Assembly: GCA_963842235.1 (NCBI GenBank)
Contig: CAWJFT010000001.1
Location: 882,368-946,367 of the forward strand
From: an uncultured Actinomycetes bacterium
Lineage (GTDB): Bacteria; Actinomycetota; Thermoleophilia; Gaiellales; Gaiellaceae
Length of the DNA stretch: 64,000 bases
Direction of reading: 5' to 3'
Every line of letters starts with the position of its first letter. Positions within the stretch are counted from its first letter, which is position 1. The notes under the pieces were generated by a model. The model saw only the letters and a program-made list of their open reading frames with translations, did not search any database and was not told where the DNA came from. This document shows, piece by piece, positions 496 to 13,721 of the stretch. The position numbers and the translations under genes are program-made.

Positions 496-3013
496 ATGCG
501 CGCCACCGCCGAGCTTCGCGAAGGCTTCCTCCAGTTCTTCGAGTCGAAGGGCCATACCCGGCTGCCCTCGGCACCGCTGATTCCGCCGCCCGAGGACACT
601 TCGACGCTGCTGATCAGCGCGGGCATGCAGCCGCTGAAGCCCTATTTCCTCGGCCAGAAGGAGCCGCCCGCGACGCTCCTCACCACCCACCAGAAGTGCT
701 TCCGCACGACCGACATCGACGAGGTCGGCCTCGACGGCTACCACCTCTCCTTCTTCGAGATGATGGGCAACTTCTCGATCGGCGAGTACTTCAAGGACGG
801 CGCGGTCGAGCTCGCCTGGGAGTTCATGTTCGAGCACCTGAAGATCGATCGCGACCGCCTCTGGGTGAGCGTCTTCGCCGGGGATCCCGAGCTCGGCCTC
901 GGGAGAGGACGAGGTCGCGATTGCCGCCTGGGAGAAGGTCGGCCTCGAACGCGAGCGGATCGTCGGCCTGCCGCGGACGGAGAACTTCTGGCAGGCGGGG
1001 GAGACAGGGCCGTGCGGGCCGTGCTCGGAGATGTACTTCGACCGCGGCGAGGCGCTGTCGTGCGGCCGGCCGACGTGTGGGCCGGGTTGCCCCTGCGAGC
1101 GCTACCTCGAGTTCTGGAACCTCGTGTTCATGGAGTTCGACCTGGGGGCCGACGGCACCCTCACGCCGCTCCCGAAGCCGGTCATCGACACCGGGCTGGG
1201 GCTCGAACGTACTGCGGCGATCCAGCAGGACGTGATCTCCGTCTACGAGACCGACGGCTACCAGGCGATCATGGACTGGATCGAGGCCGAGAGCGGTGTC
1301 GGCTGGCAGAGCTCCGAGAAGGCGACGAAGGCGCACCGGATCATCGCCGACCACGGCCGGGGGATGACCTTCCTCGTCGCCGACGGCGTCCTGCCGTCGA
1401 ACGAGGGACGCGGCTACGTCCTGCGCCGGGTGATCCGGCGAGCCGTCCAGCAGGCACGAGTCATCGGGCTCGCCGACCTGTGGCGGAGCTCCGACGTCGT
1501 CGCCGACCAGATGTCCCGGTGGTACCCGGAGCTCGACGAGAACCGTGAACGGGTTCGGGAGACGCTGAAAGAGGAGGAGGAGCGGTTCTCCGAGACGCTC
1601 GAGCGGGGAATGCGCCTCTTCGAGGAGATCGCGGCGGGCGACCGCATCTCCGGCGACGACGCGTTCCGTCTCCACGACACCTACGGCTTCCCGCTCGAGC
1701 TGACCCGCGAGCTGGCGGAGGAGCGCAGCCTCGCCGTCGACGAGGAGGAGTTCACGCGCTTGATGGCCGAGCAGCGCGCCCGGTCCCGACGCGGCGTGGC
1801 CGCGGAGACGATTGCGATCCGGGTCGACGAGACGCGGCCCACGGAGTTCGTCGGCTACGAGCAGACGGAGGTCCTGACGGCGATCGTCGCCTACGCGGAG
1901 CTCGGCGACGGCACGTTCCAGGCCAAGCTCGAGCGCTCTCCGTTCTATCCAGAAGGCGGCGGCCAGGTCTCGGACGTCGGGTTCATCGAGCATGAGGAGA
2001 CAGGCGCGCGGGCCGAAGTGCTCCGCGCGATCCGCGTCGGCGACGACCAGGTCCTGCACTTCAACGGCGAGGGGTTCCGCGAGGGCGATCGCGTCCGCGC
2101 CGTCGTTCCGTGGTCCGTGCGTTTCCCGACGATGGCGAACCACACCGCCACGCATCTCCTCCACCAGGCGTTGAGGGACATCCTCGGCGACCACGTCAAG
2201 CAGGCCGGCTCGGCGGTCCGCCCGGACAAGCTGCGCTTCGACTTCACGCATCCGAAGGCGCTGACCGAGGAGGAGCGTGAGCGGGTCGAGCACGCCGTGA
2301 ACGAGAAGGTGTTCCAGAACCACCCGGTGCGGGCCTTCGTCACGCCGATCGAGGAGGCGCGGCGGCTCGGGGCGATGATGCTCTTCGGCGAGAAGTACGG
2401 CGACGAAGTCCGGGTCGTCGAGATCGACGACTACTCGCGCGAGCTCTGCGGGGGCACGCATGTCCGGTGGACGGCGGAGATCGGGCCGTTGGTGATCCTC
2501 TCCGAGAGCTCCGTCGGCTCCGGCGCGCGGCGCATCGAGGCGGTCACCGCCGGCGAGGCCTGGGCATTGCTGCACGCTCGGGCCGAAGAAGCGGAGGAGC
2601 TCCGCGGAGAGGTGTTGGAGCTGCGGCGCGGCGCGGCCAAGCCCACGGCGCGCGCCGCCGAGACCGAGGTCATCTACAGGGACGAGTCCAATGGGATCGT
2701 CGTCGCCGAGGTCACGGCGGTGAAGGGCTCGGCGCTCAAGGACCTGTCCGACCAGATCCGCCAGTCGAAGAAGGCGTCGGTTGTGCTGCTCGGGTCTGTG
2801 GACGACGGTCGTGCGTACCTCGTCGTGAACGTAGACCCAAGCCTCGTCGAGCGCGGCGTCGATGCTGTGTCAGTTGCACGGGAGGCGGCGAAGAAGATTG
2901 CGGGCGGCGGGGGCGGACGCCCGGACCTCGCCGAGGCCGGAGGCAAGAATCCGGAGGGTTTGAGCGAAGCCTTCGAGGTGGCGAAGAGCGAGATCGCATC
3001 GGCTCTGCGGTGA
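496..3013 (+). CDS. alaS: alanine--tRNA ligase, reading frame broken near 901-903
   Basis: FFESKGH, HQKCFRT and FFEMMGNFS lie in the frame of ORF 496..1548. The rest (NFWQAGETGPCGPCSE, WNLVFMEF, HTATHLLH, CGGTHV) lies in the frame of ORF 1031..3013, which is open back to about 902. Confidence 0.9.
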
Positions 3014-3396
3014 AGGTGCTGGCGCTCGACTACGGGGCCGCTCGAACCGGCGTCGCCGTCTCGGACCCGACCGGGACGCTCGCCCGCCCGCTGGGCGTCA
3101 TCGAGCGTGCCGGCAGCGAGGACGGCCTCCGCGAGCTTGCCGAGCTCGTGCGATCGGAGGCTGTCGACCGCGTGGTCGTCGGTTTGCCGCTCACGCTCCG
3201 CGGGGAACGAGGCGAGCAGGCCGAAGAGACGGAGCGGTTCGCCGAGGCGCTCGCGGCGGCACTCGAGGTGCCGGTCGACCGCTTCGACGAACGCTTTACT
3301 ACGACCCTTGCCGGGCCGGGCGCCGGAGAGGATGCCCGGGCGGCGGCACACCTGCTGACGAGCTACCTGGAATGGTCGAAGAGCCGACGACACTGA
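3010..3396 (+). CDS. ruvX: Holliday junction resolvase-like nuclease RuvX/YqgF
   Basis: GTG at 3010 overlaps the alaS stop (GTGA). VKVLALDYGAARTGVAVSD is the YqgF N-terminal motif. Confidence 0.85.
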   Translation: MKVLALDYGAARTGVAVSDPTGTLARPLGVIERAGSEDGLRELAELVRSEAVDRVVVGLPLTLRGERGEQAEETERFAEALAAALEVPVDRFDERFTTTLAGPGAGEDARAAAHLLTSYLEWSKSRRH

Positions 3397-4951: not shown

Positions 4952-6003
4952 AGCTGACGACCGCAGGCGAATCTCACGGCCCGGCGCTCGTGGGGATCCT
5001 GACGGGGCTGCCCGCCGGCCTTGTCCTCGATCGCGACGCGATCGACGCCGACCTCGCTCGCCGTCAGCAGGGCTATGGGCGCAGCCCTCGCCAGCAGATC
5101 GAGCAGGACCGGGTGGACGTCCTGGCCGGGCTCCGGCATGGACGCACGCTCGGCACGCCGCTTGCCTTCGTTGTCCAGAACCGGGATCACAAGAACTGGA
5201 CGTGGGGGATGGACCCGTGGCCGCCCGAGGGCGAGCCCGAAGGCAAGGGCACGAAGCCGGTCACACTGCCGCGGCCGGGCCATGCCGACCTCGCCGGCAC
5301 GCTGAAGTACGGCCACGCCGATGTCAGGGACACGCTGGAACGGGCAAGCGCCCGCCAGACGGCCATCACGGTTGCGGCCGGCGCCGTCGCCAAGGCGCTC
5401 CTGGCCGAGATCGGCGTCGAAGTGGCGGGATCCGTCGTCGAGATGGGCGACGTCGACGAGGCCCGCGCCGAGCGGGACACCGTGGGCGGCGTCGTCGAGG
5501 TGCGGACACGTGGAGTCCCGCCCGGGCTCGGTTCGTATGCGACGAAGGAGCAGCGGCTCGACGCTCGGCTCGCTGCGGCGCTGATGGGGATCCAGGCCGT
5601 CAAGGGGGTTGAGATCGGCGAGGGCTTCTCGCTCGCGAACCTTCGCGGCTCGCAGGCGCACGACGAGATCCTTCCGGGGCTCCGACGCGAGACGAACCGT
5701 GCCGGCGGGATCGAGGGCGGCGTCTCGAACGGGGAGGAGATCGTCGCCCGCGCGGCGATGAAGCCCCTTCCGACGCTCATGCGGCCCCTTCGCTCGGTCG
5801 ACATCGAGAGCGGCGAGCCCGGGGAGGCGCTGGTCGAGCGCAGCGACACCGCCGCGGTCGAGGCGCTTTCCGTCGTCGCCGAGGCGTCAGTTGCCTTCGA
5901 GCTTGCCCGCGCCGCCCGGGAGAAGTTCGGCGGCGATTCCGTCGACGATTTCGTCGCCGCCCACCGCGCCTATCTCGAGCGCATCCCGTGGCAACCGCGG
6001 TAG
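4948..6003 (+). CDS. aroC: chorismate synthase
   Basis: TAGESHGPALVGIL, RPGHADL..KYG, ERASARQTA and GGISNG-like motifs. GTGA overlap with aroE. Confidence 0.92.
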   Translation: MKLTTAGESHGPALVGILTGLPAGLVLDRDAIDADLARRQQGYGRSPRQQIEQDRVDVLAGLRHGRTLGTPLAFVVQNRDHKNWTWGMDPWPPEGEPEGKGTKPVTLPRPGHADLAGTLKYGHADVRDTLERASARQTAITVAAGAVAKALLAEIGVEVAGSVVEMGDVDEARAERDTVGGVVEVRTRGVPPGLGSYATKEQRLDARLAAALMGIQAVKGVEIGEGFSLANLRGSQAHDEILPGLRRETNRAGGIEGGVSNGEEIVARAAMKPLPTLMRPLRSVDIESGEPGEALVERSDTAAVEALSVVAEASVAFELARAAREKFGGDSVDDFVAAHRAYLERIPWQPR

Positions 6004-7307
6004 ACCGTCACATCGCGCTCATCGGGTTCATGGGCGCGGGGAAGTCGACCGTCGGGAAGCAGGTCGCCGTGCTCACCGGCCGGCCGTTCATCGACCTCGA
6101 CGCGGAGATCGAGCGCCGCCACGGGCCGATCCCGAAGCTGTTCGAGCGGGGCGAGGAGGAGTTCCGGCGGCTGGAGACGGTCGTCGCCGCCGAGATGCTT
6201 GCTCGCTCGCCGTCGGTGATCGCGCTCGGCGGCGGAGCGTTCGAGGCGGCGCGATCCGATCGCGCGCTGACCGTCCTGCTCGACGTCGACGTCGAGACGG
6301 CGTGGGAGCGAAGCCGGGAGAGCGACCGACCGCTGGCCCAGGACGAACCGAGCTTCCGCGCGCTCTATGCCCAGCGCGACTATCGAGCCGTTGCGGATGC
6401 GGTCGCCGAGGATGCGGAGGGCGTCTTGCTCGCCGCGCTCGGGATCGAGTTCGCCGGGCGCCCTGAAGCCGATGCGCTAATCGCCGATCCCCGGGCACTG
6501 GAGCTCCATCCCATCCAGCTCGGCGACACCTACACCGCCGAGGGGAAGACCCTCGCGGAGGCCGCGCGGCTCTGGCGGGAGCTCAGGGTCGGCCGCGACG
6601 CGACGATCGCCGCCTACGGCGGTGGGACGACCACCGACGTCGTCGGCTTCGTGGCTGCGACCTACATGCGCGGCGTCCGTTGGATCGCGCTGCCGACGAC
6701 CCTCGTCGGCCAGGTCGACGCCGCGATCGGGGGCAAGACGGCGGTCGACCTGCCGGAGGGCAAGAACCTCGTCGGTGCGTTCCACTATCCGGATCGGGTG
6801 CTGATCGACCCGTCGCTGCTCGTGACGCTTCCCGAGGCCGAGCGCCGAAACGGGATGGCCGAGGTGATCAAGACCGGCCTGCTCGTCGGCCGACCGCTCT
6901 GGGAGCTGCCCGACGAGGAGATGATCCGGGCGTGCGCCGCCTTCAAGGCGGGCGTCTGCCTGATGGATCCCTTCGAGCAGAAGGGCCGTCGCGAGATCCT
7001 CAACCTCGGCCACACCTTCGGGCACGCGCTCGAGGCCGCCTCGGACTACCGCCTCGCGCACGGCGAGGCGGTCGCGTTGGGCTTGACCGCTGCTCTGCGG
7101 CTCTCGGGCCTGGAGATCCCCGAGGTCCTCGAAGTGCAGCCGGTCCGCGTCGACCGCGAGCGCGCGTGGGCCGCGCTCCAGCGCGACAAGAAGGCGCGCG
7201 AGGGCAGAATCCGGCTCGTGCTGCTCGAGGGGCTCGGCAAGCCGGTTGTTCGCGAGGCCGAGCCCGGCGAGGTTCGCGCCGCCCTCGACGAGCTGATCGT
7301 GGCCTGA
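5988..7307 (+). CDS. aroKB: bifunctional shikimate kinase / 3-dehydroquinate synthase
   Basis: N-terminal LIGFMGAGKSTVG P-loop (AroK). C-terminal GGGTTTDVVGF, AAIGGKTAVD, NLGHTFGHALE, HGEAVALG (AroB). Confidence 0.85.
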   Translation: MATAVDRHIALIGFMGAGKSTVGKQVAVLTGRPFIDLDAEIERRHGPIPKLFERGEEEFRRLETVVAAEMLARSPSVIALGGGAFEAARSDRALTVLLDVDVETAWERSRESDRPLAQDEPSFRALYAQRDYRAVADAVAEDAEGVLLAALGIEFAGRPEADALIADPRALELHPIQLGDTYTAEGKTLAEAARLWRELRVGRDATIAAYGGGTTTDVVGFVAATYMRGVRWIALPTTLVGQVDAAIGGKTAVDLPEGKNLVGAFHYPDRVLIDPSLLVTLPEAERRNGMAEVIKTGLLVGRPLWELPDEEMIRACAAFKAGVCLMDPFEQKGRREILNLGHTFGHALEAASDYRLAHGEAVALGLTAALRLSGLEIPEVLEVQPVRVDRERAWAALQRDKKAREGRIRLVLLEGLGKPVVREAEPGEVRAALDELIVA

Positions 7308-8766: not shown

Positions 8767-9333
8767 GTGGCCGAGACCGTCAGTACCAACCAGTTCAAGA
8801 ACGGGATGCACATCGAGCTCGATAGCTCGGTCTGGCGCATCGTGGAGTTCCAGCACGTCAAGCCCGGAAAGGGCGGCGCCTTCGTCCGGACGAAGCTCAA
8901 GAACCTCGACTCTGGCGCCGTGGTCGACAAGACGTTCCGGGCCGGGGAGAAGTTCCCCCGCGTGCACACGGAGACGAAGAACGCTCAGTACCTCTACGAC
9001 TCGGGCGACGAGGTCGTCTTCATGGACGAGCAGAGCTACGAGCAGTTCAGCCTGTCCCGTGACTCCGTTTCCGACGCGCTCGACTATCTGGAGCCGTCGA
9101 GCACCGTGCAGATGCTGAACGTCGACGGCCGGCCGGCCGGAGTCCAGATGCCGGCGTCGGTCGAGCTGACGGTGGCCGAGACGGAGCCCGGCGTCCGAGG
9201 TGACACGGTCTCGAACGTGACGAAGCCGGCGAAGCTCGCGACGGGAGCCGTCGTCCAGGTGCCGCTCTTCGTCAACCAGGGCGACCGGATCAAGGTCGAT
9301 CCCCGCGAAGGCCGCTACATCTCTCGGGCCTGA
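8767..9333 (+). CDS. efp: elongation factor P
   Basis: Full-length EF-P: FKNGMHIELD, VKPGKGGAFVRTKLKNL, VETEPGVRGDT, KPAKLATGAVVQVPLF. Confidence 0.95.
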   Translation: MAETVSTNQFKNGMHIELDSSVWRIVEFQHVKPGKGGAFVRTKLKNLDSGAVVDKTFRAGEKFPRVHTETKNAQYLYDSGDEVVFMDEQSYEQFSLSRDSVSDALDYLEPSSTVQMLNVDGRPAGVQMPASVELTVAETEPGVRGDTVSNVTKPAKLATGAVVQVPLFVNQGDRIKVDPREGRYISRA

Positions 9334-9473
9334 CCCTTCCACCCGTTGTCCTTGTGCCTGGCACCGGGACCCGGCCCGAGCGGACGGTCTCGGGGTTCAG
9401 CGGCCCGGCTCGAGCGGACTTGCCCTCCGGAGCGGACGCGCCGTTGAGAGCTGACCGGGCTACGCTTTTTCCG

Positions 9474-10160: not shown

Positions 10161-11973
10161 GTGCCCGCCCTGGTCGACACTACCGTCCGCCTGCTGAGCC
10201 AGGAACCGCTCGCCGGTCGGCTCTCGACGGCGGCGATCCTCGAGCTCGCCGAGGTGCTCGACGGAGCCGGATTCGCGGCGCTCGAGGTCTCCGGCGGAGG
10301 TGTCTTCGACAGCGCCGTCCGTCGCGGAGTCGAGTCGCCGTGGGAACGCATCCGCGCGATCCGTGCCCGCACGTCGACCCCACTGGGGATGGCCCTCCGC
10401 GGGCGCTTCCTCGTCGGGTCCCGGCCGGTTGGAGGCGACTTCGTCCGCCGGTTCGTGATGACGGCCGCCGAGAACGGGATCGACGTCTTCCGCCTCCACG
10501 ACCCGCTGAACGACGTGTCGAACCTCCGCGAGGCCGGCGAGGCGATCACCTCGGCCAACCGCGAGTTCGACGCGGGCCTCATCTACAGCCCGGGCCCCAC
10601 CGGCGAGACCGACACGCTCGTCGAGCAGGCGAAGAAGCTTCCCGACCTCGGCGCCGCGCGCATCCTCCTCCACGACCCCTCCGGGTCGCTCCAGCCGCAT
10701 CACTCGCACGAGCTGGTGGCCGCGCTCGCGGAGACCAGCGGGCTCCCCGTGGGGATCTACTGCCAGGGCTCGGGCGGAAGCGCTCTCGCGACAGCGCTCG
10801 AAGCCGCCCGCGCAGGCGCCGACCGGATCGCCTGCACCACCTATCCCGTCGCTCTGATCCTCCACCGGGTCGCCGGCGAAGGACTGGCCGACGCACTGCG
10901 TGGCCAGGGGCTCGATCCGGGGATCGACGTCTCGGCCGTCTGGCGAGCAGCGCAGCTTGTCGACGAGCACATCGGCGACGAGCCGGTCACGCCGCTTGCG
11001 ACCCGCGTCGCCGTCAGGGCTGCGGCCCACAACCTGCCGGCCGGGCTCGTCGCTGCGCTGGACGGGCACCTGCGGGCGCAGAGCGCAGGAGACCGGCTCG
11101 ACGAGGTGCTCGGCGAGCTCGAGCGCATCAGGGCCGAAGCCGGCTGGCCGCCGCTCGCCGCGCCCATCGGCCAGATCCTCGGCAGTCAGGCGCTGATCCA
11201 CGTCCTCTCGGCCAGTCGCTACCAGGTCGTCGTCGACGAGCTCCGGGAGCTCTATCGCGGAGACTTCGGCTCCCCGCCCGCGGAGCTCGACCCGACGGCT
11301 CAGCGCGCTATCGAGCTGATCTCGGACGGCGAGGTGGAGCAGCAGCCTGCGGCCGACCTCGACGAGATCAGGGACGAGGCCCGCGGGCTGGCCTCGAGCG
11401 ACGAGGAGCTTCTCCTGCTCGCGCTCTTCGGCGATGAGGCCGAGGCGCTGCTTCACGCCGTGCGCGGCCGAGCGAGCGGCGAGGAAGACCTCGTCGGCGG
11501 AGGAGTCGACCAGAGCCGCGCGGAGCGGATCCGCGAGCTGGTTCGGATCGTCCAGGAGAGCGGTGTCGCCGAGATCGCAGTCGAAGAAGCCGGGATGCGA
11601 GTCTCGATCCGCCGGCGCGAGGAGCCTGAGGCAGGGACCCCACCCGCACCTGCGCCAGCCGCGCCGACGCCGACGGATGTCGCTCCGCTGCAGCCGGCGG
11701 AGGAGGTGTCGACCGACGGGCTCGTCCGGGTCGAGGCGCCGATGGTCGGGACCTTTTACCGCGCGTCCTCTCCCGGCGCGCCGGCCTTCGTGGAAGAGGG
11801 CGCGCCGGTCGCCGCCGGCCAGACGCTCTGCATCCTCGAGGCGATGAAGCTGATGAACGAGATCAAGGCGGAGCTCGACGGCATCGTGCGGCACATCCAC
11901 GTCGCCAACGGCGACGCCGTCGAGTTCGGCCAGCTCCTGTTCGAGATCGAGCCGGCGCTCGGCCGGCCACTCG

Positions 11974-11984
<11 letters not shown>
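10161..11984 (+). CDS. biotin carboxyl carrier protein (AccB-type) with a long N-terminal OadA/PycB-like carboxyltransferase domain lacking the catalytic ligands
   Basis: Residues 1 to about 400 align by eye along OadA/5S carboxyltransferase. The C-terminus is AccB (IRELVRIVQESGVAEIAVEE, MVGTFYRASSPGAPAFVEEG, LCILEAMKLMNEI). Confidence 0.8.
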
Positions 11985-13334
<1,350 letters not shown>

Positions 13335-13338
<4 letters not shown>

Positions 13339-13721
13339 CCGCTATCAGTCGCCGAGAAGCACGGCGCGCAGCGCTCTTCATGCTCTTCCAGTGGGACGTG
13401 ACCGGCAAGCCGCTGGGGTCGACCTACGAGGGCGAGGTGGACGAGTTCGCGCACGAGACGGCGGAGGGCGTCGCCGAGCGTGCGGAGGAGCTCGACCGTC
13501 GAATCGACGAAGCGACCGTCGACTGGCCGGCGAACCGGCTCGGCGCGCTCGAGCGGAACGTGCTCCGCGTCGGCATCTACGAGCTCGACAAGGGCGAGGT
13601 TCCGCCGGAGGTGGCGATCGACGAAGCGGTGCGCCTCGCGAAGCGCTACGCCTCTGATGAAGCCGGCAAGCTCGTGAACGGGATCCTGGGACGGATCGCG
13701 CGGGAGACGGCGAAGCCGTGA
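13335..13721 (+). CDS. nusB: transcription antitermination factor NusB
   Basis: REARRAALFMLFQWDV, LERNVLRVGIYEL, AIDEAVRLAKRY, NGILGRIA. GTGA overlap with accC. Confidence 0.85.

Follow-up and report, generated by a model that had tools for sequence, protein, structure and literature searches.

We analyzed a 64,000-nucleotide stretch (hereafter, the window) of the genome of an uncultured Gaiellaceae bacterium (Actinomycetota, Thermoleophilia, Gaiellales; contig CAWJFT010000001.1), in which the gene in the accB position encodes a biotin carboxyl carrier protein (BCCP) fused to a carboxyltransferase (CT) domain of the pyruvate carboxylase (PC) type whose known catalytic residues have been replaced. 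The explanation that we favor, with moderate confidence, is that a functional AccB carries an inactive CT domain, folded and under constraint, as a non-catalytic assembly module of acetyl-CoA carboxylase (ACC), and that this arrangement descends from a once bifunctional carrier. According to this explanation, the fusion protein would serve as the BCCP of the heteromeric ACC (with AccA, AccD, and AccC), its CT domain would no longer catalyze carboxyl transfer, and the domain is probably a structural remnant of a carrier that, in an ancestor, supplied two carboxylases. The heteromeric ACC of bacteria is known from textbooks as an enzyme of four proteins and is a target of antibiotics; this group of soil Actinomycetota, which is large and abundant, has an ACC carrier that is four times the normal size and encloses a dead enzyme from another pathway.

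Fusion gene and AccB complement of the genome

The fusion gene is an uninterrupted frame of 607 codons (zero internal stops), and its GTG start follows the stop codon of an upstream DUF1361 gene after 10 nt. Its parts, the positions that correspond to catalytic residues of active homologs, and its conserved neighbors are located in the window as follows:

10161..11984, + strand: whole gene, presumed inactive CT domain plus AccB (607 aa and stop, GTG start)
10167..10961, + strand: TIM-barrel (HMGL-like) part of the CT domain (aa 3–267; predicted local distance difference test [pLDDT] mostly >90 in the predicted model)
10191..10193, + strand: Leu11, at the position of the metal-ligand Asp (LRD); Leu in all Gaiellales sequences examined
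10671..10673, + strand: His171, at the position of the carbamylated Lys (xKDM); H/N/L/S within the order
10758..10766, + strand: Tyr200-Cys201-Gln202, at the HxH position; Tyr varies (Y/F/H/S), Gln is fixed
11028..11465, + strand: PYC_OADA (conserved carboxylase) helical part of the CT domain (aa 290–435)
11160..11162, + strand: Ala334, at the position of the catalytic Thr (VTP(T/S)SQ); A/S/P/Q/G within the order
11526..11630, + strand: AccB N-terminal domain (ERIRELVRIVQESGVAEIAVEEAGMRVSIRR; aa 456–490), from the AccB model and the 4hr7_B alignment
11631..11729, + strand: Pro/Ala-rich flexible linker of AccB (about aa 491–523; pLDDT <50)
11730..11951, + strand: biotinyl domain (aa 524–597)
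11847-11849, + strand: codon of the biotin-attachment residue Lys563, in EAMKLMNE
11974..13338, + strand: accC, biotin carboxylase (BC), 454 aa; starts inside the last 11 nt of the fusion gene
8767..9333, + strand: efp, upstream anchor of the conserved pepP-efp-[accB]-accC-nusB string
13335..13721, + strand: nusB, downstream anchor of the same string

The product divides into a CT part (aa 1–440) and an AccB part (aa 441–607). A normal AccB has about 150–170 aa, whereas this protein is not a small stand-alone carrier and has 440 extra N-terminal residues that comprise a complete CT fold. Pfam profiles matched in the order HMGL-like (aa 3–267; 45.3 bits, gathering cut-off 29), PYC_OADA (aa 290–435; 65.3 bits, gathering cut-off 27), and Biotin_lipoyl (aa 524–596; 75.9 bits, above the gathering score). 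The NCBIfam model for PC subunit B (PRK09282) matched end to end (aa 4–597; E 6e-119) with 398.1 bits, 4 bits short of its cut-off of 402, and the AccB equivalog model TIGR00531 matched aa 456–597 (model 5–155 of 156) with 128.1 bits, exceeding its cut-off of 115.2. Scores for the equivalogs TIGR01108 (oadA; 336 against a cut-off of 756.5) and PRK14041 (pycB; 247 against 734) were less than half of what these models require.

The AccB part resembles its counterpart in ACC of the Escherichia coli type (4HR7 chain B, 1BDO) in sequence, layout, and genomic position. Residues 23–175 of 4hr7_B align with it (E 2e-22), and it has the N-terminal domain, the Pro/Ala linker, and a biotinyl domain with EAMK(L/M)MNE, preceded by a disordered linker at aa 439–453. 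Across 35 aligned sequences, the biotin-attachment residue Lys563 does not vary. In the phmmer alignment, the segment FYRASSPGAPAFVE falls opposite the BCCP domain of E. coli and, going by the E. coli sequence, may be the 'thumb' insertion of ACC-type carriers. The gene occupies the efp...accB-accC...nusB slot, and accC is translationally coupled to it.

The host assembly (2.6 Mb, 3 contigs, 93% complete) contains seven Biotin_lipoyl matches: the fusion protein, two BC-BCCP alpha subunits that belong to acyl-CoA carboxylases, three lipoylated E2 proteins, and one weak GcvH-like match. The fusion protein (131.6 bits in the whole-genome search) was the only match above the TIGR00531 cut-off, and profile searches of this 93% complete assembly found no stand-alone accB or biotinyl protein. 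accD and accA adjoin each other on contig 3. In a survey of the class, which covered 121 genomes in ten family groups (f1–f10, with f1–f3 as the window's order), the AccB model scored above its cut-off in 88 genomes, and nearly every match lay inside a frame of ~600 aa. All genomes of the seven families with the fusion (f1–f6 and f8) had AccA, which was missing from f9, f10, and most of f7, the three families without the fusion.

An assembly error or frameshift that joins two genes is so improbable that we reject it. In addition to the uninterrupted frame, the same three domains occur in at least 120 protein clusters (79–97% identity) among the matches listed, which come from independent JGI, ENA, and NCBI assemblies; the fused frame is present in 18 of the 19 sampled genomes of the window's family and throughout the class, and purifying selection is visible at the codon level across the CT-AccB junction. 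The initial annotation, which was made from the letters of the DNA, had recognized a C-terminal AccB-type carrier followed by accC and, upstream of it, a fold of the oxaloacetate decarboxylase alpha subunit (OadA)/PC subunit B (PycB) type, and had named a sequencing error as the possible undoing of this finding. The fusion proved genuine and both parts were recovered (by TIGR00531 and the 11-nt overlap with accC for the carrier, and by Pfam, PRK09282, phmmer, and Foldseek for the CT fold). Its division into 430 + 170 aa was about right, and the motifs that it quoted (DTTVRLLSQE, LHDPSG, GIYCQGS, and EAMKLMNEI) are all present as written.

In the host genome, the second acyl-CoA carboxylase alpha subunit (BC-BCCP; locus L005, C1:1199541-1201244) is split over two frames. 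Near positions 1015-1150 of this locus the frame shifts, the BC part turning to nonsense after ...GIRVDAGVEEGDEVG, and the remainder (...YDPMIAKLIAHG... up to the biotinyl domain with VLEAMKMET) continues in another frame. Either the gene is a pseudogene with a frameshift or the assembly is in error at this place.

Lost catalytic residues and retained fold

Catalytic positions were read from phmmer alignments to 5ks8_C (PycB of Methylobacillus flagellatus), 2nx9 (OadA of Vibrio cholerae), and 1rqb (5S subunit of transcarboxylase), and the three alignments agreed column for column at these positions. None of the four metal-binding residues (Asp, carbamylated Lys, His, and His) is kept; their places are taken by Leu11, His171, Tyr200, and Gln202. 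This agrees with the earlier claim that all metal ligands had been replaced, to which we add the loss of the catalytic Thr (Ala334), a residue that we take to be T882 of Rhizobium etli PC and T908 of S. aureus PC (rows labeled 3tw6 'T882A' and 3hbl 'T908A' are among the results of the structure search). Two residues past the Pro of the VTP(T/S)SQ motif, Gly337 replaces Ser, and the Tyr of LVGY is replaced by Ser87. Within the order, positions 171, 200, and 334 drift, and this variability at three of the five replaced sites argues against a new catalytic center or ligand set.

An AF2 model built on 35 sequences had a mean pLDDT of 83.8, with the barrel and helical part (aa 1–430) mostly >90 and disorder limited to the two linkers (439–453 and 486–518) and the extreme C-terminus (601–607). 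Foldseek ranked 5ks8 PycB first (E 5e-43), and the CT part superposed on 2nx9 with a TM-score of 0.83–0.86 (root-mean-square deviation [rmsd] 3.2–3.5 Å) and on 1rqb with 0.84 (rmsd about 3 Å). As far as the model goes, the TIM-barrel and helical CT fold is retained despite the dead site.

Selection on the domain was assessed by the ratio of nonsynonymous to synonymous substitution rates (dN/dS; Nei-Gojobori) in comparison with three relatives (protein identity 97, 93, and 87%; dS 0.16–0.77). The ratio was 0.05–0.10 for the CT part, 0.04–0.10 for the TIM barrel alone (the lowest in the gene), 0.10–0.22 for the AccB part, and 0.08–0.18 for accC. The CT domain is under strong purifying selection, with ratios as low as or lower than those of accC, and in this respect it is as conserved as an essential protein would be.

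Distribution and evolutionary history

The string aroK/B-pepP-efp-[fusion]-accC-nusB is kept in f1, f2, f3, f4, f6, and f8. In f5 (L052 [G056], L061 [G002], L072, and L073), the fusion, with its motifs intact, is followed directly by nusB, and accC lies elsewhere. A full set of catalytic motifs (DTTLRD(A/G)HQS, CIKDMAALL, LHCHY, and LVTPMSQ; hereafter, intact) was found in f5, f8, and one f6 genome. Fusions that have lost catalytic residues (hereafter, degenerate) fall into three groups within the class, each with a different set of replacements. In the window's order (f1–f3), the metal positions hold Leu, then His, Asn, Leu, or Ser, then Tyr, Phe, His, or Ser, and finally Gln; in f4, the Asp is kept and HQS, the Lys, both His, and the Thr are lost; in part of f6, the Asp is lost, the Lys is kept, and Asp-x-Asp replaces His-x-His.

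Outside the class, an intact fusion followed by accC is present in Peptococcaceae, Desulfosporosinus, Desulfitobacterium, Thermincola, Syntrophomonas (with pepP-efp upstream), other Clostridia, and Eggerthellales. Further degenerate fusions (e.g., with Lys changed to Met, Asn, Thr, or Leu, or with a His lost) were present among representatives at 50% identity, a set that consists mostly of fragments, and additional degenerate clusters were placed among intact Bacillota-like sequences. Judging from this survey, the phylogenetic distribution of the fusion, a point raised by the initial annotation, is that of an ancient protein that is catalytically intact in sister lineages, Bacillota, and Eggerthellales; the CT-AccB fusion is old, and what sets Gaiellales and a small number of further lineages apart is only its inactivation.

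In a tree of concatenated pepP, efp, and nusB products (674 columns), the intact f6 genome was sister to the degenerate f6 group (100 in the Shimodaira-Hasegawa-like approximate likelihood-ratio test [SH-aLRT]) and Gaiellales were sister to f4 (96). These two placements imply at least two inactivations inside the class. Taken with the clusters described above, the sequences point to two or more inactivations inside the class and to others in further metagenomic lineages; in none of these cases was the domain deleted. That it outlasted several independent losses of activity speaks for a role in which catalysis was never needed.

The same comparisons bear on whether the CT domain was recruited to a new, metal-independent chemistry that uses a different substrate and the carboxybiotin of its own carrier. 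The strong purifying selection on the barrel would fit such a recruitment, as would 41 positions that are conserved in both degenerate and intact clades with different residues, the continued attachment of the carrier, and the translational coupling of accC. We nevertheless consider it improbable: the residues with a known chemical function in this fold have all been lost (the metal tetrad, the catalytic Thr, and the LVGY Tyr), what replaces them varies in part within the order, the three degenerate lineages have three unrelated replacement sets, and none of the replaced sites has gained an invariant residue that could be a nucleophile or an acid-base group. The initial annotation had offered recruitment to a different chemistry beside a scaffold or docking module; the former became less likely because three of the five replaced positions vary, and it is the latter that we infer. 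Its reading of the domain as a pseudo-enzyme attached to the carrier of the housekeeping ACC gained support from the dead site, the purifying selection, the lack of a separate canonical accB in the genome, and the presence of accD-accA.

Metabolic setting and role of the CT domain

Known systems provide points of comparison for such a role. The best match in both sequence and fold is PycB of the two-subunit PC (5KS8), with which the fusion protein shares the order CT - PYC_OADA - carrier and an adjacent BC gene. Apart from the replaced metal ligands and catalytic Thr, it differs in the segment between the CT and biotinyl domains: in 5KS8, beta-sheets at this place form a BT-like domain that surrounds the C-terminal alpha-subunit helix (residues 454–472 of about 471 aa; PMC5059739), whereas the window's protein has the AccB N-terminal domain there and its AccC (454 aa) is without the extra C-terminal helix. 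OadA (2NX9) and 5S (1RQB) share the CT fold (28–30% identity); unlike in these systems, the window's site is dead and there is no oadB/oadG membrane pump and no 12S/1.3S partner nearby.

The closest architecture is that of the intact CT-AccB fusions of sister Thermoleophilia, Peptococcaceae/Desulfosporosinus/Syntrophomonas, and Eggerthellales, which are orthologous in layout, including the AccB N-terminal domain and the following accC, several of them also with efp upstream and nusB downstream. They are 33–42% identical to the window's protein but keep DTTLRDxHQS, IKDMAG, H-x-H, and VTP(T/M)SQ, and from these motifs they are presumably active pyruvate carboxyltransferases; they are uncharacterized and annotated as PycB or OadA. 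A dead relative of a carboxylase component that is retained in an ACC system is also known from plants, where the non-biotinylatable BCCP look-alikes named BADC regulate heteromeric ACC (PMC12706156). BADC, however, is a dead carrier on a separate polypeptide, whereas the window's protein is a live carrier fused to the dead CT domain of a different carboxylase. According to earlier work cited in PMC3199775, carrier domains and pyruvate-type carboxyltransferase (PCT) domains have fused and split many times. The literature that we searched included structural studies of two-subunit PC and surveys of how carboxylases are built, and in it we found no description of a CT-AccB fusion as the carrier of ACC or of an inactivated PycB-type domain.

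Intact and degenerate fusions differ in their metabolic surroundings. Phosphoenolpyruvate carboxylase (PEPC) was detected in 22 of the 121 class genomes, all of which belong to f1 (10 of 19 genomes), f4, and f7; none of the f5, f6, and f8 genomes had it. f4 genomes have frames of the size of single-chain PC (about 1150 aa), and six Gaiellaceae have a second CT with intact motifs beside a small carrier. Intact fusions occur where no alternative pyruvate/phosphoenolpyruvate carboxylase was detected, and degenerate ones often alongside an alternative.

A second and different CT-type gene (DTTTRDGNQS, YLKDPGG, and LHSHCT) beside a small AccB-like carrier was seen at L059 (G017), L063 (G045), L108, and L110. 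The direct arrangement of CT-type gene and small carrier is shown by L063 (Gaiellaceae), and G017 has an accC-like gene between the two; two similar loci are recorded under Solirubrobacterales (L108) and Thermoleophilaceae (L110). The three-gene carboxylase cluster is uncharacterized and is missing from the window's genome.

A sequence of events consistent with these data would begin with an ancestral CT-AccB fusion with an intact active site that, together with one BC, carboxylated pyruvate through its own CT domain and acetyl-CoA through AccA/AccD. In the Gaiellales lineage, the pyruvate-carboxylating site would then have been dismantled, and the domain would have been retained because the carrier and its complex with AccC had come to need it as an oligomerization and assembly core. 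CT domains of the PycB/OadA/5S family form dimers. In two-subunit PC, they are the core that carries the mounted BC dimers (PMC5059739). Our best guess is that the CT part may hold several carriers together and organize the AccC-AccB sub-complex; both this structural role and the bifunctional ancestor we infer.

Several observations weigh against this explanation. The fusion-protein tree, which requires four changes overall (metagenomic clusters included), joins all three degenerate groups of the class (99) and so contradicts the marker tree; because the degenerate domains sit on long branches, to which we tentatively attribute their clustering, we gave the marker tree more weight. The host genome, as far as profile searches can tell, is without PEPC, GTP-dependent phosphoenolpyruvate carboxykinase (PEPCK), malic enzyme, or any other PC-type CT, and for this reason we keep a small probability on residual or novel activity. 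The old pocket, moreover, shows more than mere decay: in Gaiellales, the new residues Leu11, Phe83, Pro173, and Gln202 have become fixed, and Arg10, Gln14, Arg80, Asp114, and Asp172 are kept. Such conservation is not obviously needed by a pure scaffold, and the fixed residues together with the kept Arg and Gln may leave room for a ligand or for docking of the carrier.

It is on these pocket residues that a sensing role would rest, with the dead CT domain acting as a ligand-sensing or regulator-docking domain that tunes ACC to the state of central carbon metabolism; the old pocket might still bind pyruvate, oxaloacetate, or a related carboxylate, or park the biotinyl domain. Arg10, Gln14, and Arg80, which are invariant in Gaiellales, are presumably equivalent to the substrate-contacting R548, Q552, and R621 of Rhizobium etli PC, and the TIM barrel that holds the pocket has the lowest dN/dS of the gene. 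Yet f4 and the degenerate f6 group have lost Gln14 and Arg80 and kept the domain, which implies that ligand binding is not the general reason for its retention, and positions 171, 200, and 334 of the same pocket drift. We regard a sensor as unlikely, although less so than a new chemistry.

A still working PycB or OadA alpha subunit with an unconventional active site, as the JGI name 'oxaloacetate decarboxylase (Na+ extruding) subunit alpha' suggests, is very unlikely. In its favor are the PRK09282 score just below the cut-off and the absence of the other carboxylating enzymes listed above from the searched genome. It is opposed by the replacement of the metal tetrad and catalytic Thr, the low oadA and pycB equivalog scores, the lack of an oadB/oadG context, the position of the gene in the accB slot, and the availability of an ATP-dependent PEPCK (C1:1762849-1764237), the only link between C3 and C4 compounds that was detected in the host. 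This node of metabolism looks minimal, as no active PC was found (the searches did not include the glyoxylate shunt or archaeal-type PEPC), and the sole other HMGL-like match in the genome is a 317-aa frame (C1:1541362-1542168).

We tentatively propose, as a possibility somewhat short of even, that the fusions of CT and AccB form an as yet undescribed class of carboxylase 'hub', in which the intact form serves two CTs and the degenerate form is an obligatory architectural core of ACC. The intact form would then be both the PC and the ACC of the cell, with one BC and one carrier, and a shuttling of CO2 between malonyl-CoA and pyruvate without ATP would be conceivable in principle; the degenerate form would be a complex locked in by its own history. 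Should the intact relatives share one BC and BCCP, anaplerosis and lipid synthesis would be linked in one complex. Repeated inactivation without deletion also provides a natural experiment on the persistence of pseudo-enzyme domains. There is a practical side to the names in use: NCBI lists the protein as 'acetyl-CoA carboxylase biotin carboxyl carrier protein [Gaiellaceae bacterium]', and naming it an oxaloacetate decarboxylase, as in JGI, leads to wrong metabolic reconstructions of metagenome-assembled genomes of Gaiellales.

Some variation was seen in the genes upstream of the fusion. aroK and aroB form a single fused frame of 439 aa in the window (5988-7307) and two separate stretches in several sister families. 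The gap between efp and the DUF1361 gene is only ~20 nt in the window (9333-9354); in relatives with an 87–93% identical fusion protein (L144, L145, L146, and L147; about 2400-3250), a 183-aa Y1_Tnp gene, which encodes an IS200/REP-type tyrosine transposase, lies between these two genes. The DUF1361 frame of the window is ~40 codons longer than in those relatives (265 aa vs 222–225 aa).

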